DNA of 64,000 nt, taken from the NCBI GenBank assembly GCA_049290235.1, contig JBATNG010000034.1:3686-67685 (forward strand). Direction: 5' to 3'. The notes beneath the pieces were generated by a model. The model saw only the letters and a list, made by a program, of their open reading frames with translations, did not search any database and was not told the DNA's origin. The position numbers and the translations under genes were made by a program. This document shows, in pieces, positions 3,396 to 49,549 of this stretch. The stretch comes from Candidatus Moraniibacteriota bacterium. Its GTDB lineage: Bacteria; Patescibacteriota; Minisyncoccia; Moranbacterales; UBA1568. Numbering within the stretch: the stretch's first letter is position 1; each line of letters opens with the position of its first letter.

Positions 3396-4676
3396 ATGCG
3401 TATCAAAACAAACAAGCATCGCTTGATTCCTTTTTTTGTCTCCCTGCTTTCGATCTGGGGGGTTGTCTGGAGCGTGCCGCTGGTTTCAGCTCAAGATGAT
3501 CCGGACGAGATCAAAGATGATATCTCGGATGTTGAAAAGAAACTCAAAGCGGCTGAAGCCAAGAAGAAGGCGTTGGAATCTGAGTTGGCAGGGATCAATG
3601 CCTCATTGTCTTCCACTCAGCGGGCTATCGCTGAGGCCCAGATCAAGATCCAGCAGGCAGCCAATACTATCGAGCGCAAGGAAGCGGAGGTTGCTCTACT
3701 GGAAAGGCAGATCGAAGGGAAAAAGGAAATCATCACCGGACTCATGCGGGAGTTGTACTATCAGGGGGAGTGGCCATTGCCGCGCGTTTTGGTCGCCGAG
3801 GAGCGGTTCACCGACGTGGTCAATGACCCGGACAAGCTTCTGACCGTCGGGGAGAAGATCTCGACGGCGCTCGATTCGCTCTCTTTGACCAAGGCAGATA
3901 CCGAGTCAGAGAAGCTCTCGCTCGAGGATGCGAAGAAGGACCATGAGACGCTGCTTCAACAGAAGGCTGTCGAAAAGATCGCCCTCGTCTCTGATCAGCA
4001 AGAGACGCTCGGAGATGTCGAAGATGTCGCCAAGACAGTGTCCCGATTGAGTAAAGAACTGAACGAATTGCAGAGCGACTTGAACGCGCTCACCGGTGGG
4101 TCGTATGATGCAGGGGACATCAAGGAAGCCGTCACGTACGCCAGCGGAAAGACGGGTGTGCCGAAGGGTTTCCTCATGGGTATGCTGAAGATGGAGACCA
4201 ACCTCGGCAAAAACGTCGGCGGTTGCACCTATGCCGAAGTAGAGAAGGGTGCAGAGTCACGCTACAAGTCGGGCAAACTTTCCAAGGCTTCCTGGGCGAC
4301 GTTTCAGCGTCGACGCGAAGTCTTCAAGTCGATCACGAAGGAACTCGGTTACGATTACAAAAAGAAAAAAGTTTCCTGTAATCCGAGTGGCTACACGGGG
4401 ACCGGCGGTGCGATGGGTGTGGCGCAGTTCATGCCGGACACCTGGATGGGGTACAAGTCGCAGGTCGCTTCAAAGACTGGCCACAATCCGCCGGATCCGT
4501 GGAACCTGACCGACGGTGTGATGGCGATGGCCACCAAACTGTCCAAGACACCGGGTGTCACGAGCGGGAGTCGGAGCGCCTGGAAGAAAGCGGCGGCCTC
4601 ATATCTCGGCACGAGCTATGCCCCCTATATCAACGGTGTCCTCTACTGGGCGGACAACTACAAGAAGCTTTTCTAA
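3396..4676 (+). CDS. Secreted coiled-coil protein with a C-terminal lytic-transglycosylase-like domain
   Basis: N-terminal signal/TM 'LIPFFVSLLSIWGVVWSVPLVSA', a long Lys/Glu coiled coil, and a C-terminal 'GAMGVAQFMPDTW' matching the G-x-MQFMP-TW motif of SLT/MltB-type murein transglycosylases. Confidence 0.5.
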   Translation: MRIKTNKHRLIPFFVSLLSIWGVVWSVPLVSAQDDPDEIKDDISDVEKKLKAAEAKKKALESELAGINASLSSTQRAIAEAQIKIQQAANTIERKEAEVALLERQIEGKKEIITGLMRELYYQGEWPLPRVLVAEERFTDVVNDPDKLLTVGEKISTALDSLSLTKADTESEKLSLEDAKKDHETLLQQKAVEKIALVSDQQETLGDVEDVAKTVSRLSKELNELQSDLNALTGGSYDAGDIKEAVTYASGKTGVPKGFLMGMLKMETNLGKNVGGCTYAEVEKGAESRYKSGKLSKASWATFQRRREVFKSITKELGYDYKKKKVSCNPSGYTGTGGAMGVAQFMPDTWMGYKSQVASKTGHNPPDPWNLTDGVMAMATKLSKTPGVTSGSRSAWKKAAASYLGTSYAPYINGVLYWADNYKKLF

Positions 4677-42962: not shown

Positions 42963-43060
42963 CGACCCGCGCCGTACAAGCAGAACAATATCTCGGCTGG
43001 CCTCGGCGTCACCGCTGCGCTGGCGGCGTATGACTTCATCCGCAAAGGCGGCACACACTA
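42963..43060 (+). pseudogene. Displaced trxB 3'-terminal fragment (native-codon-usage copy)
   Basis: Translates to RPAPYKQNNISAGLGVTAALAAYDFIRKGGTH*. Followed by a strong terminator. Confidence 0.7.
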
Positions 43061-43093
43061 GCTGGATAGCGAGTAGATGTGTAGCTCGTAGTA

Positions 43094-43117
43094 AGAGGCT
43101 CTAGATAGCCTCTTTTT
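43094..43117 (+). terminator. Rho-independent terminator (original trxB terminator)
   Basis: agaggct-ctagat-agcctct followed by TTTT. Confidence 0.5.
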
Positions 43118-43323
43118 CGCGCTCGAATACATTACCCTAGACAGAAACAGGAAAAAGGTGTATAATGGATTGTTCGTTAAAAATCCTGATTTTTGCCAGA
43201 GCAGCCAGCGCTTCTTCGTCCTTCGATACCAACATAGGACAGAAAAGAAGACTTTGCTGCTCTGGCAAACTCACGTTGTGAGAGCCTTGAGCACGGTGAA
43301 AACCTATCATAGGAGAAAGCACC

Positions 43324-43893
43324 ATGTCTCAAATCGCAGAATTCCACGCCGCCATCCTGCAAAACCTCCCGGATCTCACTTCGCAAGAAATGCAGGAATG
43401 GATTGGACCGCGCCGTGCGACCTTACAGGCGGCGTTGGCACGGGTGTTGGCTGGGTACCGCCAAATTGCCCTTGATTACCGCCTCACACTCGAGCAGATG
43501 ATCGCCCTCGGTTGCTACGACAGGAAGAACAGCGACATTACGGCCGAACGCTTCCCTTTGGTGGGCAGCGGCGTGGCTGAGCTCGAGACGAAGCCATTTC
43601 ACTTCAACAAGCGTGTCTCGTCGGAGTCAGCAATCCAGCTGATCGCGGCCGCCGACCCGGTACGTCCTTGGCAAGTAGCCAAGATCGAGCACGGGCTCCG
43701 CTATGGGGCCGCCTATCCAGAGGAACAGCGCCAGTTCCCGATCGTGATGCTCGGTTCTTCCTGCCAGGTGTACGGCAGTCGCTGCGTGTCAGTTCTCTGC
43801 ACGGATGTCTCCGAGCGGGACCTGGACCTCGACTTCTGGGACGGTGAGTGGTTTGCCCGCTGCCGTTTCCTGGCCGTTCGCCCGGTGCTCTGA
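43324..43893 (+). CDS. DGR target (variable) protein, 189 aa; the VR encodes the C-terminal ~40 residues
   Basis: Good RBS (aggaga). The C-terminus '...GSRCVSVLCTDVSERDLDLDFWDGEWFARCRFLAVR' is encoded by the VR. Confidence 0.8.
   Translation: MSQIAEFHAAILQNLPDLTSQEMQEWIGPRRATLQAALARVLAGYRQIALDYRLTLEQMIALGCYDRKNSDITAERFPLVGSGVAELETKPFHFNKRVSSESAIQLIAAADPVRPWQVAKIEHGLRYGAAYPEEQRQFPIVMLGSSCQVYGSRCVSVLCTDVSERDLDLDFWDGEWFARCRFLAVRPVL
43755..43881 (+). repeat. DGR variable repeat (VR)
   Basis: 127-bp ungapped alignment to TR 44231-44357 with 18 mismatches, all where TR has A (VR has G or T). The last 22 nt, ctgccgtttcctggccgttcgc, are identical (IMH-like). Confidence 0.85.
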
Positions 43894-43935
43894 ACCTGGA
43901 GCCTTTGGGACAGCACTCTGTTCCTTTGGCCCTTC

Positions 43936-43972
43936 CCGCCGTATGCATGCATACGGCGGTCTTCTTTTTTCT
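43936..43972 (+). terminator. Perfect 24-nt palindromic hairpin plus T-run downstream of the VR
   Basis: ccgccgtatgca|tgcatacggcgg followed by tcttcttttttctg. Confidence 0.5.
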
Positions 43973-44230
43973 GATACAGTAGAGATGACAAATGAAAAAT
44001 CCATGGTTACGGCTGTGGGTAATTTGTCCGCATGCTGCAGAGTGAGAGTCGGGACGGCTACGGCTTTCTCGAGTGCGCTCGGCGGAATGTTCTCAAAAAC
44101 AGAGACAAGTTGGTGTGAGGTGCTCGGTAACAGATAAGGTTACGAATACGATACAGCCCTGAGAATTTTCCTCTGCTTTTCGGTGGGTGTATGGATCAAG
44201 GGGCGGTGGTACGGATGGTACCCTACACAT

Positions 44231-44357
44231 TTCTTCCTGCCAGATGAACGGCAATCGCTACGTGTCAGTTCTCAACACGAATGACTCCAAGCGGAACCTG
44301 AACCTCAACAACTGGGACGATGAGTGGAATGCCCACTGCCGTTTCCTGGCCGTTCGC
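44231..44357 (+). repeat. DGR template repeat (TR)
   Basis: The counterpart of the VR. The ORF predicted over it (44187-44387), Asn-rich with AAY codons, is not a gene. Confidence 0.85.
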
Positions 44358-44776
44358 TACTCTTCCTGTTTCTCCTGGTATGTGTGACCAGGAGTTTTGT
44401 TTATGAGTTGGCGCCTCCATCCGCCGAGCATCCGACCAATCTCCCCAAGTTGTTCGGCGAGGTAAGCGTACTTGCCATTATCGAGCGCTCGGGTATCCCA
44501 AGCGAGCTGTAATAGGAGTTTCAAAAGGTCAACCCGCGAGATGGCCCTGTTGATGAGGAGTTGCTTTTCGGTTGTTTGTGAGTAGCTCGCCAGGAAACAA
44601 TACTCGATAGTGAGGAGAAATATATCATCAATCTTCGATCCTATGGTGAAGCGCCGGGCTTTCGGAAAGTGGACGAGATATTCCTGCCAAATACCGTACG
44701 CGTCTTTGAGCTTGAGTACTACGGGGATGAGCTTTGGTTGCAGAAGGTTCGGGGGGGGGGTATTCTGTGAGGGCAT
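44357..44776 (-). CDS. avd: Avd-like accessory variability determinant (four-helix-bundle)
   Basis: C-terminal ~120 aa 'LKDAYGIWQEYLVHFPKARRFTIGSKIDDIFL...AISRVDLLKLLLQLAWD...EIGRMLGGW' match the Avd/PF05635 pattern. Start uncertain (M111 or M117 of the long ORF). Contains a C10/G10 tract encoding PPP. Confidence 0.65.
   Translation of the reverse strand: MPSQNTPPPNLLQPKLIPVVLKLKDAYGIWQEYLVHFPKARRFTIGSKIDDIFLLTIEYCFLASYSQTTEKQLLINRAISRVDLLKLLLQLAWDTRALDNGKYAYLAEQLGEIGRMLGGWRRQLINKTPGHTYQEKQEE
44751..44760 (+). repeat. G10 homopolymer at the avd 5' end, 20 nt upstream of the RT start codon
   Basis: Ten G at 44751-44760. Confidence 0.9.
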
Positions 44777-44779
44777 ACA

Positions 44780-45781
44780 ATGAAAAAACTCCATAACGCT
44801 TATCAGAATATCATCTCTGTCGAAAATTTGCTCGATGCGTGGCGAGAATTTGTGAGGGGGAAGAAAAAGAAGTGCGATGTGCAGGCGTTTCAGTATGCGC
44901 TCACTGATAATATTCTTGCACTTCATGCTGATTTGAAAAGCAAGGCCTATGTCCATGGTGGTTACGAGGCCTTTAAGGTCTCTGATCCGAAACCCCGCCA
45001 TATTCACAAAGCCTCCGTCCGCGACCGGATCCTCCATCACGCCTTGTATCGTGTCCTCTATCCGTACTTCGACCGGGCCTTCATCGCTGACTCGTACTCT
45101 TGTCGGATTGGGAAGGGAGTACACCGATCCCTCAATCGTTTTCGATCATTTGGCCGGAAAGTATCGAACAATCACACTCGAACGGTCTGGATACTCAAGT
45201 GTGATGTCAGAAAGTGCTTTGCTTCGGTCGATCAGGACGTTCTCATGAACATCCTCAAAAAACACATTGCTGATCCGGATACACTCTGGCTGCTGGAAAG
45301 AGTCATTACTAGCTTTGATTCAGGAACACCTGGCCGAGGGCTTCCTCTTGGCAATTTGACTTCGCAACTCCTCATCAATATCTATCTGAATGAGCTCGAC
45401 CAGTTTGTGAAACAGCAACTGAAAGCGAAGTACTATATCCGGTATGCAGATGATTTCGTCGTTTTTTCCAAAAATAAAGACGAGTTGAAAAATATACTCA
45501 TTCTGATGGATGTGTTTCTCAGACTCAATCTCTGCTTCGAACTTCATCCGGACAAAGTGTTCATCAAAACCATCGCAAGCGGTGTGGACTTCCTCGGCTG
45601 GGTGCATTTCCCTGATCACCGTGTCTTGCGGACGACGACCAAGCGAAGGATGTTTCGGAGATTGAGTGAGAAGAATATCGAGTCGTATCTCGGATTGCTT
45701 TCGCATGGGAATGGGTTGAGGTACGAGATAGAGAGAATAGCTTTGACAGAGGGGGTAAAACCTGCTATACTGGGAGAGTAA
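44780..45781 (+). CDS. DGR reverse transcriptase
   Basis: RT domains with 'LPLGNLTSQLLINIYLNELD' (the DGR-type [ILV]GxxxSQ motif) and the catalytic 'YIRYADDFVVF'. 333 aa, typical DGR RT size. Confidence 0.9.
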   Translation: MKKLHNAYQNIISVENLLDAWREFVRGKKKKCDVQAFQYALTDNILALHADLKSKAYVHGGYEAFKVSDPKPRHIHKASVRDRILHHALYRVLYPYFDRAFIADSYSCRIGKGVHRSLNRFRSFGRKVSNNHTRTVWILKCDVRKCFASVDQDVLMNILKKHIADPDTLWLLERVITSFDSGTPGRGLPLGNLTSQLLINIYLNELDQFVKQQLKAKYYIRYADDFVVFSKNKDELKNILILMDVFLRLNLCFELHPDKVFIKTIASGVDFLGWVHFPDHRVLRTTTKRRMFRRLSEKNIESYLGLLSHGNGLRYEIERIALTEGVKPAILGE

Positions 45782-45791
45782 AAGAAGTAAG

Positions 45792-45820
45792 AAACGGGTG
45801 AAAGCCCCGTTTTCTTTTTT
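45792..45820 (+). terminator. Rho-independent terminator after the RT
   Basis: aacggg-tgaaag-ccccgtt followed by TTCTTTTTTT. Confidence 0.5.
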
Positions 45821-46054
45821 TACATCGTTCTTGTGCCAAAATAAAATAAACACAAAAAGAAAAGCGCGAAAACGCTTTCAACCAATTTTGGAACAGGTGT
45901 CCCTGTCCCACGCGGCAGCACTAATAGAGGCCTGCCGCCCACATCAATGATTCCGCTCTCGGCTCCGGCTGATGGGCGGATTATCATTTCTGGCCCAGAA
46001 AATAGGCCTTTTCCCGCCTTGAAAGAAGCCCTCGTTCGAGCTATACTCGGGGTT

Positions 46055-47317
46055 ATGGAAGTCTTTCGTATCCAAGGTGGAAAGCGGCTTGCCGGAGCTA
46101 TTCCCGTCTATGGTTTGAAGAACGCAGCGACGCCGATCATCGCGGCGACGCTCTTGTCTCGTGAGCGTTCGGTGCTCGAGAATATGCCGCGGATCGAGGA
46201 TGTGTTCCGCATGCTCGAAATCGTCGAGAGCCTGGGAGCGACGGTCGAGTGGCGAGGTGAGCGCACGGTCGCCATCACGCCCGCTGAGATTGACCCGGCG
46301 CGCGCTGACCAGGACAAGGTGAAGCGGCTCCGTTCGTCGATCTTGCTCCTCGGGTCGCTGTCGGCGCGCTTTGATCGATTTGAACTGCGACAACCGGGTG
46401 GCTGTGTCATCGGGGCGCGGCCGGTGGATACGCATGTCGATGCTTTGGCCAAGCTCGGTGTCGTCATCACGACAACCGAAAAGGGGTATGCGGTTGATGC
46501 GAGCGAACGTTGTCCTGGGAAGGTTGTCCTGAGAGAGATGTCGGTCACCGCGACCGAGAACGCGATGATGCTCGCAGCCCTCATTCCAGGACAAACGGTT
46601 ATCAAGATCGCGGCGTGTGAGCCGCATGTTGTCGACCTCGGACACTTCTTGGAGAAGATGGGTGCTCGAATTACTGGCCTCGGGACACATACGATCACGA
46701 TCATGGGGAAATCTGAACTCAGTGGTGCGACCCATGCCATCATACCGGATCACAATGAAGCCGCGACCTTCCTCGCTCTGGGTGCGGCAACAGGGAGTGA
46801 GATCACCGTCGAGCACGCACGCGAAGATGATCTCGATATCGTTTTGGAAAAGTTGAAAGAATTCGGTGCAAGTTTCACGATCACTCCAGATGCTATCACC
46901 ATTCATCCAGCACAGCCGCTTCGGGCCGTAACGAAAATTGATACGCGGCCATACCCGGGCATCCCGACGGATATCCAGGCACCGCTGGCCGTATTGGCGA
47001 CGCAAGCTGAGGGGGAGACGCTCATTTTTGATACGATGTTCGAAGGCCGCTTTAATTATGTAGCGGAGCTCGAAAAAATGGGGGCAAAGCTGACGGTGCT
47101 CAATCCCCATCAGGTACTCGTTCATGGGCCAATCGCTCTCAAGGGTACGGTGATCAAGAGCTACGACCTGCGGGCCGGGGCATCGCTCATCATCGCGGCG
47201 CTCGCGGCGTCAGGCGAGACGATTATCGAGGATATCTATCAAGTCGATCGTGGCTATGAAGCGATCGAAGAACGCCTCTCGGCAATCGGTGCGAGTATCA
47301 TCCGCGAGACGAGATAA
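46055..47317 (+). CDS. murA: UDP-N-acetylglucosamine 1-carboxyvinyltransferase
   Basis: 'FRIQGGKRLAGAIPVYGLKNAATPIIAATLL', EPT fold. Confidence 0.9.
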   Translation: MEVFRIQGGKRLAGAIPVYGLKNAATPIIAATLLSRERSVLENMPRIEDVFRMLEIVESLGATVEWRGERTVAITPAEIDPARADQDKVKRLRSSILLLGSLSARFDRFELRQPGGCVIGARPVDTHVDALAKLGVVITTTEKGYAVDASERCPGKVVLREMSVTATENAMMLAALIPGQTVIKIAACEPHVVDLGHFLEKMGARITGLGTHTITIMGKSELSGATHAIIPDHNEAATFLALGAATGSEITVEHAREDDLDIVLEKLKEFGASFTITPDAITIHPAQPLRAVTKIDTRPYPGIPTDIQAPLAVLATQAEGETLIFDTMFEGRFNYVAELEKMGAKLTVLNPHQVLVHGPIALKGTVIKSYDLRAGASLIIAALAASGETIIEDIYQVDRGYEAIEERLSAIGASIIRETR

Positions 47318-47329
47318 CCACGATACTGT

Positions 47330-48343
47330 ATGCAGTGGCTGATTCGGAAAATCGGTATCGATTTGGGGACGGCGAATACGCTCGTGTTTGTGCCGGGCGA
47401 GGGGGTCGTCATCAATGAACCCTCGGTCGTCGCTATTTCCCTTTTTGAGAACAAAGTCCTCGCTGTCGGCAATGAAGCCAAAGAGATGCTCGGACGCACG
47501 CCGGATACGATTGTCGCCAGTCAGCCGCTCCGGGATGGAGCGATCGCTGATTATCGAGTGACTGAGGCGATGCTCAAGTACTTCATCAACCGGGTGATGG
47601 GCCGAGTGCGTTTCATCCGTCCCGAGGTTGTGCTTTCAGTCCCGGCGGGCATCACTTCGACTGAGCGGCGTGCGGTCGTCGATGCGGCGATGAAGGCGGG
47701 AGCCAAAGCGGCCTATGTCGTGAAAGAGCCTGTCCTCGCGGCGATCGGCGCAGGCATCCCAATTCACACCGCGCAGGGAAACATGATCATCAATATCGGC
47801 GGCGGGACGTCCGAGATCGCCATCATCTCGCTCGGGGGTATCGTCGCCTCGCACAGCGCTCGGGTCGGCGGGAACAAGATCGACCAAGCCATCAGCGACT
47901 ATATCAAGCGCAAGTACAGTCTGGCCATCGGCGACCGGACAGCCGAGGAAGTGAAGATCGGCATCGGTTCGGCGATCGCTCAGGTGAAAGAAGACCACAT
48001 GGAAGTGCGGGGCCGTGACCTGATGGGCGGGTTGCCAAAGACGATCACCTTGTCGTCGAACGAAGTGACGGAAGCGATCCAGGATGAACTGCGTGAGATC
48101 ATCCATGTCATCAAGCAGGTGCTCCAAGAGACGCCGCCAGAGCTCGCGTCGGATATCATGGACAAGGGCATGGTGCTCTCGGGCGGGACGGCGCAGCTGC
48201 GCTATCTCGACCAGCTCATCGCCAAGACCATCAATGTGCCGTGCTATGTCGCGGATGATCCGGCATTTTGTGTGGTGAAGGGGACGGGTATCGTCCTCGA
48301 AAATCTCGATACCTACAAGCGCAGCTTGATGCTTGGTAAATAA
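47330..48343 (+). CDS. mreB: Rod shape-determining protein MreB
   Basis: 'IGIDLGTANTLVFVPGEGVVINEPSVVA', actin fold. Confidence 0.9.
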   Translation: MQWLIRKIGIDLGTANTLVFVPGEGVVINEPSVVAISLFENKVLAVGNEAKEMLGRTPDTIVASQPLRDGAIADYRVTEAMLKYFINRVMGRVRFIRPEVVLSVPAGITSTERRAVVDAAMKAGAKAAYVVKEPVLAAIGAGIPIHTAQGNMIINIGGGTSEIAIISLGGIVASHSARVGGNKIDQAISDYIKRKYSLAIGDRTAEEVKIGIGSAIAQVKEDHMEVRGRDLMGGLPKTITLSSNEVTEAIQDELREIIHVIKQVLQETPPELASDIMDKGMVLSGGTAQLRYLDQLIAKTINVPCYVADDPAFCVVKGTGIVLENLDTYKRSLMLGK

Positions 48344-48382
48344 CGAACAACGAACAACCGACAACGTACAACAAAATTCAGA

Positions 48383-49549
48383 ATGGGGTTGAGGTTGTTG
48401 GCGGTAAGTTATAAGTTGTCGGTTATGAAAATTGGTATTGATGCTTCGCGGGCCTTCCTTCGTCGTCGGACGGGGATAGAGGAGTACAGTTATCAGGTCA
48501 TCCGTCATCTCCGAGCGGAGCTTCGGGATCAGACGGTGGTTCTCTATGTCCGGAAGAAACTTGAAATCCGAAACTCGAAACTCGAAATGACGGTGCCGGA
48601 TATTGATTTCGACCTCCCGCCGGAGTGGCAGGTGAAGGGCTTGTGGGCACCGCGCTTCTGGACGCAAATTCGACTCTCGCTCGAGATGCTCTGCCATGCG
48701 CCGGACGTGCTCTTTGTCCCAGCTCATACGGTTCCGCTCATCCATCCTCGGAAAACAGTGGTCACGGTTCACGGGCTCGAGTATGAATTTTCGCCTGAGA
48801 GCTATGGGTTCTGGGAGCGGCTCTATATGCGCTGGTCAATCCGGTTTTCGGTGCGAGTGGCTGACCGGGTGATCGCCGTTTCCGAAAATACCAAACGCGA
48901 TCTGATGCGGCTGTACGCTGTGCCAGAGAAAAAGATCCAGGTTATTTACGAAGGTTTGAGTCAACCTACAACCTACAACCTACAACCTACGACCGAAAGC
49001 GAGCCCCCATACTTTTTATTTATCGGTCGTTTGGAGACGCGGAAGAATATCGTGCGGATGATCGAGGCGTTTGAGATATTCAAAGCGAAGACAGGTCTAG
49101 CCCATACGCTCGTCCTCGCCGGTAAACCGGGTTTCGGATACGAGGCGATTCGCTACAAGCTACAAGCTACAAGCTACAAGCAAGATATTCATGAGCTCGG
49201 GTACGTGAGCGAAGAAGAGAAGTGGGAATTATTGAAAGATGCTGAAATATTCCTGTTCCCGTCGCTGTACGAGGGTTTCGGCTTGCCAGTGATCGAAGCA
49301 CAGAGTGTCGGTGTGCCGGTCATTACTGCCAATACATCATCACTCCCGGAGGTGGCGGGGGAGGGCGCGGTCCTGGTGAACCCGCTCGACTCAGGCGAGA
49401 TAGCCGAGGCGATGGAGATGCTGGTCACCGACCCCGAGAAACGGGCTGATATAATAGAAGAAGCGACCCGGAATGTGGATCGCTTCGGTTGGGCGCAGTG
49501 CGCCAAGGGGGTGGCTCAGGCGGTTGGACGACCCTCGTTATCGGGATAA
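48383..49549 (+). CDS. Family 4 (GT-B) glycosyltransferase containing two in-frame heptanucleotide tracts
   Basis: C-terminal 'FLFPSLYEGFGLPVIEAQSVGVPVITANTSSLPEVAG'. Repeat tracts at 48963-48990 and 49153-49180. Confidence 0.8.
   Translation: MGLRLLAVSYKLSVMKIGIDASRAFLRRRTGIEEYSYQVIRHLRAELRDQTVVLYVRKKLEIRNSKLEMTVPDIDFDLPPEWQVKGLWAPRFWTQIRLSLEMLCHAPDVLFVPAHTVPLIHPRKTVVTVHGLEYEFSPESYGFWERLYMRWSIRFSVRVADRVIAVSENTKRDLMRLYAVPEKKIQVIYEGLSQPTTYNLQPTTESEPPYFLFIGRLETRKNIVRMIEAFEIFKAKTGLAHTLVLAGKPGFGYEAIRYKLQATSYKQDIHELGYVSEEEKWELLKDAEIFLFPSLYEGFGLPVIEAQSVGVPVITANTSSLPEVAGEGAVLVNPLDSGEIAEAMEMLVTDPEKRADIIEEATRNVDRFGWAQCAKGVAQAVGRPSLSG
48963..48990 (+). repeat. (AACCTAC)x4 heptanucleotide tandem repeat inside the GT4 gene
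   Basis: Perfect 4 x 7 nt; encodes PTTYNLQPT. Confidence 0.9.
49153..49180 (+). repeat. (GCTACAA)x4 heptanucleotide tandem repeat inside the same GT4 gene
   Basis: Perfect 4 x 7 nt; encodes YKLQATSYK. Confidence 0.9.

Follow-up and report, generated by a model that had tools for sequence, protein, structure and literature searches.

A conserved simple sequence repeat at the avd/RT junction of diversity-generating retroelements in candidate phyla radiation bacteria: a probable contingency switch

Most diversity-generating retroelements (DGRs) described from bacteria of the candidate phyla radiation (CPR) share one gene order, in which the template repeat (TR) and the reverse transcriptase (RT) lie on one strand and avd lies between them on the opposite strand. 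This order, TR-(avd)-RT or architecture B3, makes up 90% of the CPR DGR set of Wu et al. (2018, Nucleic Acids Res 46:11; PMC5758913), whose text speaks of indels only in the TR and the variable repeat (VR) and leaves a homopolymer or other repeat at the avd/RT junction unmentioned. We analyzed a stretch of 64,000 nucleotides (nt) from Candidatus Moraniibacteriota bacterium (assembly GCA_049290235.1, contig JBATNG010000034.1, positions 3,686–67,685 of the forward strand), hereafter called the window. It holds a complete DGR between 43.3 and 45.8 kb, consisting of a target gene with its VR, the TR, an antisense avd and the RT, and a run of ten guanines (G10) stands at the avd/RT junction. We consider it likely that this G10 is a member of a conserved group of hypermutable simple sequence repeats (SSRs), that is, a contingency locus, which would switch Avd, and possibly RT, and in this way gate mutagenic retrohoming. 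The main parts of the element are as follows.

43324–43893, + strand: DGR target gene, an open reading frame (ORF) of 189 amino acids (aa) with the VR at its C-terminus
43755–43881, + strand: VR, a 127-nt match to the TR inside the target ORF
44231–44357, + strand: TR, 476 nt downstream, counted from VR to TR
44357–44776, - strand: avd, 139 aa plus stop, with the ATG at 44776 and the stop codon at 44357–44359
44751–44760, no strand assigned: G10 (C10 on the avd strand), the SSR proposed as a slippage switch
44780–45781, + strand: RT, 333 aa plus stop (Pfam RVT_1, 81.8 bits)

With TR and RT on one strand and avd between them on the opposite one, the window agrees with the definition of B3. It shares with the CPR-type B3 elements (PMC5758913) the order target/VR, TR, antisense avd, RT, a CPR host and adenine-specific TR/VR differences, does not differ from them in layout, and is an ordinary member of this group. 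A preliminary description of the locus had already placed TR and RT on the + strand with an Avd-like gene on the - strand between them, divergent from RT, and our coordinates agree. It had also called this layout non-canonical; the arrangement is as described but not novel, since B3 is the usual one in CPR DGRs. Nor do related genomes depart from it. Homologs of the RT number thousands in CPR, and our RT search yielded 80 loci from species-representative genomes, essentially all of them metagenome-assembled genomes of CPR/Patescibacteria. Wherever the window's Avd matched a locus, avd was found on the - strand directly upstream of RT, in 63/63 genome loci and in 54/54 metagenome contigs (117 in total). 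The control set of 80 phage DGR loci, with more distant RTs (27–42% identity), had avd co-directional and upstream in 41/41 detectable cases.

The window's element has the features of a DGR in its TR/VR adenines, in the placement of its VR, in its type of RT and in its Avd. TR and VR differ by 18 mismatches in 127 nt, which change 18 of the 30 TR adenines as opposed to none of the 97 other bases, and all 18 fall on codon positions 1–2 of the target. By blastn the VR is the only TR-like copy in the window besides the TR itself, and profile searches of the target gene returned no Pfam or NCBIfam family. The RT translation contains LGNLTSQ and YADD. RTs of the DGR type are defined by an (I/L/V)GxxxSQ motif 4 together with YxDD, which these two motifs fit. 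The best NCBIfam match of the RT is a group II intron RT below the cut-off, in libraries that contain no DGR-specific RT model. The Avd-like gene had been recognized by the motifs HFPKARRFTIGSKID and EIGRMLGGW, both present in its translation, and profile searches bear this out with 43.3 bits to Pfam bAvd (cut-off 40) and 62.5 bits (E = 3.9e-17) to NCBIfam DivGenRetAVD, the latter below its 80-bit equivalog cut-off. The DivGenRetAVD alignment covers Avd residues 18–121, so that the domain starts at about residue 18, and residues 1–17 form a leader that contains the repeat.

The DGR of Bordetella phage BPP-1 (mtd-avd-TR-brt) has several parts in common with the window: an RVT_1-family RT with (I/L/V)GxxxSQ and YADD, an accessory protein of the bAvd family, a TR/VR pair with A-to-N changes and a hairpin downstream of the VR. 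In BPP-1, however, avd is co-directional and upstream of the TR, whereas in the window it is antisense between TR and RT. In BPP-1 the priming site is located in the spacer RNA that links TR and brt, while in the window this space is taken up by the antisense avd, with a conserved hairpin and U-tract after the TR. Loci of the BPP-1 type also have no repeat upstream of RT (0/80 phage loci), where the window has G10.

The avd stop codon, which had been described as abutting the 3′ end of the TR, overlaps the last TR base. At its other end avd stands back to back with RT, the two divergent ATGs (44776 and 44780) being separated by 3 nt. The ATGs of the avd leader (44776–44794 in the window, and likewise in relatives) are the reverse complement of codons at the RT start; MEFFH, for example, lies opposite MKKLH, with CAT (His) read as ATG. 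As the two ORFs overlap or abut head-to-head with practically no intergenic DNA, each promoter must sit within the other gene.

On the avd strand the tract reads ACC CCC CCC CCG and encodes Thr-Pro-Pro-Pro (Avd residues 6–9). The preliminary description had located it correctly at 44751–44760, as Pro-Pro-Pro within the 5′ coding region of avd, although its distance of 20 nt from the RT ATG has to be corrected to 19 nt. G10 is the sole G or C homopolymer of at least 7 nt in the window, compared with ≈11.7 expected from base composition, so such runs are otherwise avoided in this genome. For the relatives, the 100 nt upstream of each RT start were aligned, and an SSR was counted as a junction repeat if it lay within 110 nt upstream. 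Junction repeats were found in 55/74 genome loci with enough upstream sequence (species-level CPR), again in 55/75 independent metagenome contigs as a replication, and in 0/80 phage loci of canonical layout. The same genome loci contain only 20 SSRs elsewhere in 587 kb (binomial P ≈ 1e-112), and five of these 20 are junction repeats at truncated contig ends.

The type of repeat varies from relative to relative. The 55 repeats of the genome set comprise 44 G-runs (G7–G14, mode 9–10), five (GT)n, four (GA)n and two (CT)n, the dinucleotide repeats in relatives having 5–28 units; one locus has (GTCT)4 at the junction. On a neighbor-joining tree of the RTs, poly-G is spread throughout, (GT)n is confined to one clade, and (GA)n and (CT)n each occur twice, with several losses of the repeat. 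The encoded peptides differ too (PPP, SLSL, THTH, and RERE). A slippery repeat that is kept at one position while its sequence and peptide vary rules out an assembly artefact, the alternative raised in the preliminary description, as the reason for the tract's existence; the length of 10 is given as assembled. The same variability speaks against a motif at the peptide level and against an RNA or DNA signal of defined sequence. We rejected selection for poly-proline, since other clades encode SLSL, THTH or RERE at this place and the prolines are encoded by a pure C run instead of a mixture of Pro codons. We also rejected the tract as a Shine-Dalgarno sequence for RT because of its distance of 13–50 nt from the ATG.

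Three relatives without a junction repeat have one in another part of the element. L050 (at ≈4584) and L061 (at ≈4536) carry (GA)11 and (AG)9, respectively, within the RT ORF, immediately ahead of the conserved GxPxGNLTSQ motif; judged by its position, the slippery repeat is here relocated into the other essential DGR gene, RT. In L070 a G10 run (3644–3653) lies in the 3′ tail of avd, after EIGRMLGGW on the TR-proximal side. Five contigs (L011, L013, L022, L038, and L056) begin at or within the junction repeat, as with (CT)28 in L013, which suggests that this hypervariable or low-complexity site interrupts assembly.

The reading frame of avd depends on the repeat. When tract lengths were simulated in the window, G7, G10, and G13 kept the Avd frame (139 aa for G10 and 140 aa for G13), while G9 and G12 gave products of 18–19 aa and G8 and G11 products of 48–49 aa. 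No ATG, GTG or TTG was found between the tract and the Avd domain of the window, so translation of its Avd must begin at an ATG upstream of the tract. Among repeat-free relatives, the Avd start is an ATG a few codons before a conserved (D/L)(I/L)P(I/V)(F/L) motif or after a leader of 7–24 codons, and an in-frame ATG is present in 27/28; the sole exception is the (GTCT)4 locus. Repeat-bearing relatives have an in-frame upstream ATG in just 28/90 cases (31%; Fisher p = 2.4e-10 against the repeat-free ones), with practically the same proportion for mononucleotide (21/67) and dinucleotide repeats (7/23), and in 33/90 the Avd frame lacks any ATG, GTG or TTG. Random lengths would leave one third in frame. 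The near-universal intactness of avd without a repeat indicates selection on Avd and a true start of translation at the upstream ATG. By the same frame analysis, the window's element is ON as assembled and lineages that lost the repeat are fixed in the ON frame. The closest relative, L271, whose RT is 87% identical, has G9 and is OFF for avd.

Length differences are also seen directly between near-identical contigs. Groups were defined by at least 99.67% identity over 900 nt on the RT side with zero indels there. Out of 15 such groups 13 were used, the sets for P0017 and P0019 being discarded because their called RT ORFs span the tract, so that an exact-protein look-up returns one length only. 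The repeat length differed in 7/13 groups, namely G8/G9, G14/G9/G9, G10/G9, G11/G9/G10/G11, G10/G10/G9, G11/G9 and (GT)7/(GT)6. The group with G14 compares a curated complete Wolfebacteria genome (G14) with two metagenome contigs, and in the four contigs L082–L085 the tract is the sole difference across 1.2–2.6 kb. Contigs L094–L096, the set nearest to the window, with an RT 75% identical to that of the window and nearly the same junction, have either G10 with an intact 139-aa avd called or G9 without an avd call.

Automatic gene calls are inconsistent at the tract in L082–L110, where avd is missing, truncated to 80 aa or given a non-canonical start, and RT is extended upstream through the tract to 350–374 aa. 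At the junction, public annotations of these DGRs can therefore not be relied on, and about two thirds of these avd genes appear frameshifted or missed by gene callers.

The anatomy of the junction, its conservation, the turnover of repeat types, the length polymorphism and the frame statistics are the basis on which we read the tract as a switch. Slippage in vivo, its effects on the Avd protein and on mutagenesis, and a dependence of the CPR RT on Avd are inferred. Slipped-strand mispairing at replication would change the tract length; G10 (or G7 or G13) would give full-length Avd, and one base less or more would truncate it after 18 or 49 codons, respectively. As Avd is needed by the RT for cDNA synthesis in the DGRs studied, each slip should switch retrohoming of the target gene, heritably and reversibly, and a population would always contain both diversifying and "locked" cells. 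Since 19 nt separate the tract from the RT ATG, and some relatives have it inside the RT ORF, it may alter RT expression at the same time. An ON/OFF switch through the G tract had been proposed in the preliminary description. The comparative data (position, replacement of one repeat type by another, length polymorphism and frame statistics) argue strongly for its Avd part; an effect on RT is plausible only.

Known contingency loci offer close parallels. What identifies such loci is found here as well: an uninterrupted repeat long enough to slip (≈8 or more for G/C), a position at which a change of one unit would alter the product, and a mixture of in-frame and out-of-frame alleles. The poly-G/C loci of Neisseria (hmbR, hpuAB, pgtA) and the poly-G genes of Campylobacter resemble the window and its relatives in having tracts of 8–14 nt within the first few codons of an ORF, in frameshifting by ±1, in length variation between near-identical strains and in many out-of-frame sequences. 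Those loci control surface or restriction-modification genes, whereas the CPR case would place an essential accessory factor of a targeted hypermutation machine under such control. In the (TA)n repeat of Haemophilus influenzae hifA/hifB, as in the window, one repeat lies between divergent genes and one slip can affect both. The hifA/hifB repeat is intergenic, however, and sets the -35/-10 spacing, while that of the window is inside the avd ORF with the two genes 3 nt apart, and in some clades also inside the RT ORF.

Several observations weigh against a switch of this kind or narrow its basis. The dependence of RT on Avd is known from Bordetella and a few other DGRs, none of them from CPR. The length changes come from assembled contigs of relatives and none from the window's own strain: an exact look-up of the RT protein found no further contig of that strain, nor did a flank pattern with a variable gap in metagenome contigs, and L081, the only other contig with an identical RT, begins inside RT without the junction. 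No length variation was seen in 6/13 near-identical groups, mostly contigs from the same projects, and some of the differences between assemblies could stem from errors in homopolymer sequencing or in assembly; the dinucleotide cases and G14 versus G9 are not typical errors, and count against a pure sequencing-error view. Many relatives have a TTG 4–8 nt after the tract, which could permit initiation independent of the tract and so a leaky switch. Because the upstream ATGs lie opposite conserved RT codons, their presence alone is weak evidence of use. Slippage of RNA polymerase on the C10 template could also blur the ON and OFF states.

The tract might instead act mainly on RT, as a promoter spacer, an upstream element or the 5′ end of the gene, its length tuning or switching RT transcription or translation, with secondary effects on avd. 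Transcriptional phase variation by a repeat occurs in Neisseria porA/opc and in H. influenzae hifA/hifB. A candidate promoter can be read from the window's sequence across the tract:

44738–44766, + strand: weak sigma-70-like promoter candidate for RT, with TTGCAG (44738–44743), a 17-nt spacer that includes G10, and TATTCT (44761–44766)

In 14/49 poly-G loci the tract is followed immediately at its 3′ end by a TAnnnT hexamer, compared with 0–3 at any other offset. Several relatives have the RT ATG 13 nt past the tract, a distance consistent with leaderless transcription from a -10 element of this kind. In 17/61 loci RT has no canonical start downstream of the tract, and its frame continues through the tract with Gly-Gly-Gly (e.g., L271 and L086); the two head-to-head ORFs of those clades thus share one repeat. 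The window's hexamers, however, match the consensus at only 7/12 positions, the promoter scan reports none at the junction, the sigma-70 consensus may not be that of the CPR host, and conserved antisense Avd codons (Leu-Pro) are a confounder for the -35-like hexamer. An action mainly on RT, moreover, leaves unexplained why Avd is in frame in 27/28 repeat-free but only about one third of repeat-bearing relatives. We regard it as unlikely to be the primary role; as an additional effect it is compatible with a switch of Avd. A more modest chance goes to events at the RNA level, by which stuttering of RNA polymerase or ribosomal frameshifting on C10/G10 would give a constant small in-frame fraction of avd and the tract would set the dosage of Avd. 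Homopolymers of at least 9 nt are slippage sites of bacterial RNA polymerase, as in Thermus dnaX and the poly(A) tracts of endosymbionts, and the loci look otherwise intact and conserved although roughly two in three assemblies are out of frame. Yet in several clades the homopolymer is replaced by di- or tetranucleotide repeats, which are not known as transcriptional slippage sites, the dinucleotide loci show the same in-frame fraction of about one third as the homopolymer loci, and the length differences between near-identical contigs are at the DNA level. This reading is thus improbable on its own, and both it and an action on RT could coexist with DNA-level switching of Avd.

A tract without function, either a sequencing or assembly artefact or a neutral by-product, for example of a mismatch-repair-poor lineage or of decaying DGRs, is highly improbable. 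Homopolymers are error-prone in short reads, many of the related contigs have low coverage and some end at the repeat. Against this, over 110 independent assemblies, produced by many projects and with the curated complete genome L023 (CP011209) among them, have a repeat at this position; the 80 phage DGRs have none at the equivalent place, and G/C runs are depleted in the rest of the window. Uninterrupted tracts persist among RTs just 45–70% identical, the TR/VR pairs are still A-specific, and repeat-free relatives are in the ON frame in 27/28 cases. Conservation, frame statistics and the phage control already largely refute the view that the tract has no function.

The preliminary description had envisaged a transcript running from the TR through the antisense avd into RT. 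Three hairpins lie in or next to the element.

43936–43969, + strand: perfect GC-rich palindromic hairpin with the stem CCGCCGTATGCATGCATACGGCGG (10 pairs) followed by the T-run TCTTCTTTTT, downstream of the VR
44372–44404, + strand: conserved hairpin of the form CTCC-stem-GGAG (stem-loop 44372–44394, then TTTTGTTTAT), 14 nt after the TR and inside the 3′ end of the antisense avd; terminator-like in the terminator scan
45791–45823, + strand: terminator-like hairpin after RT, from the terminator scan

The hairpin next to the TR folds with -17.3 kcal/mol (z = -2.3). A hairpin with a T-run was found at the same place in 36/62 relatives, compared with 1/62 in a control region, and its shape CTCC...GGAG-TTTTGTTT is conserved with compensatory changes in 5/7 pairs. 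An Rfam scan of 43000–46200 gave no family for it, only a chance snoRNA match below threshold. It is probably an intrinsic terminator or a 3′ element of the TR RNA of CPR DGRs; being conserved, terminator-like and followed by a U-tract so close to the TR, it makes a TR-through-antisense-avd-RT transcript less likely. The hairpin downstream of the VR could be a cruciform or terminator element as in other DGRs.

Directly downstream of RT is murA (EPSP_synthase family, 45947–47317), as in several relatives (L089–L094), which indicates that in this lineage the DGR has a stable place in the chromosome rather than in a phage. Further downstream, an ORF for a GT4 glycosyltransferase (48383–49549, + strand; Pfam Glycos_transf_1, E = 1.6e-34) contains three heptanucleotide arrays (GAAACTC x4.6, CAACCTA x4.7, and GCTACAA x4.3), and a fourth (AACGAAC x4.4) lies just upstream of it, the array region spanning 48342–49181. 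A change of one unit would frameshift the glycosyltransferase gene, which may therefore be a second contingency locus of the same genome.

DGRs, the B3 layout and phase variation by SSRs are each already known; a conserved SSR that would gate a DGR appears to be new. We found no report of phase variation in CPR bacteria in the literature, and full-text searches, which did not cover Paul et al. (2017), found no description of an SSR at a DGR avd/RT junction. Extending the proposal beyond this locus, we lean, with some reserve, toward the view that across CPR/Patescibacteria DGR mutagenesis is gated by a contingency repeat common to the head-to-head avd and RT. This would amount to two-tier bet-hedging with populations mostly OFF, the repeat being reinvented (G, GA, GT, CT, and GTCT; sometimes within RT) or lost, which would leave the element locked ON.

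To our knowledge, the regulation of DGRs is largely unknown. An always-on DGR would erase useful variants and impose a mutational load. If our reading of the junction is right, a slippage switch on Avd and RT needs no regulator, which would suit genome-reduced CPR bacteria, and it would be the first reported link between two classic strategies of localized hypermutation, SSR phase variation and DGRs.

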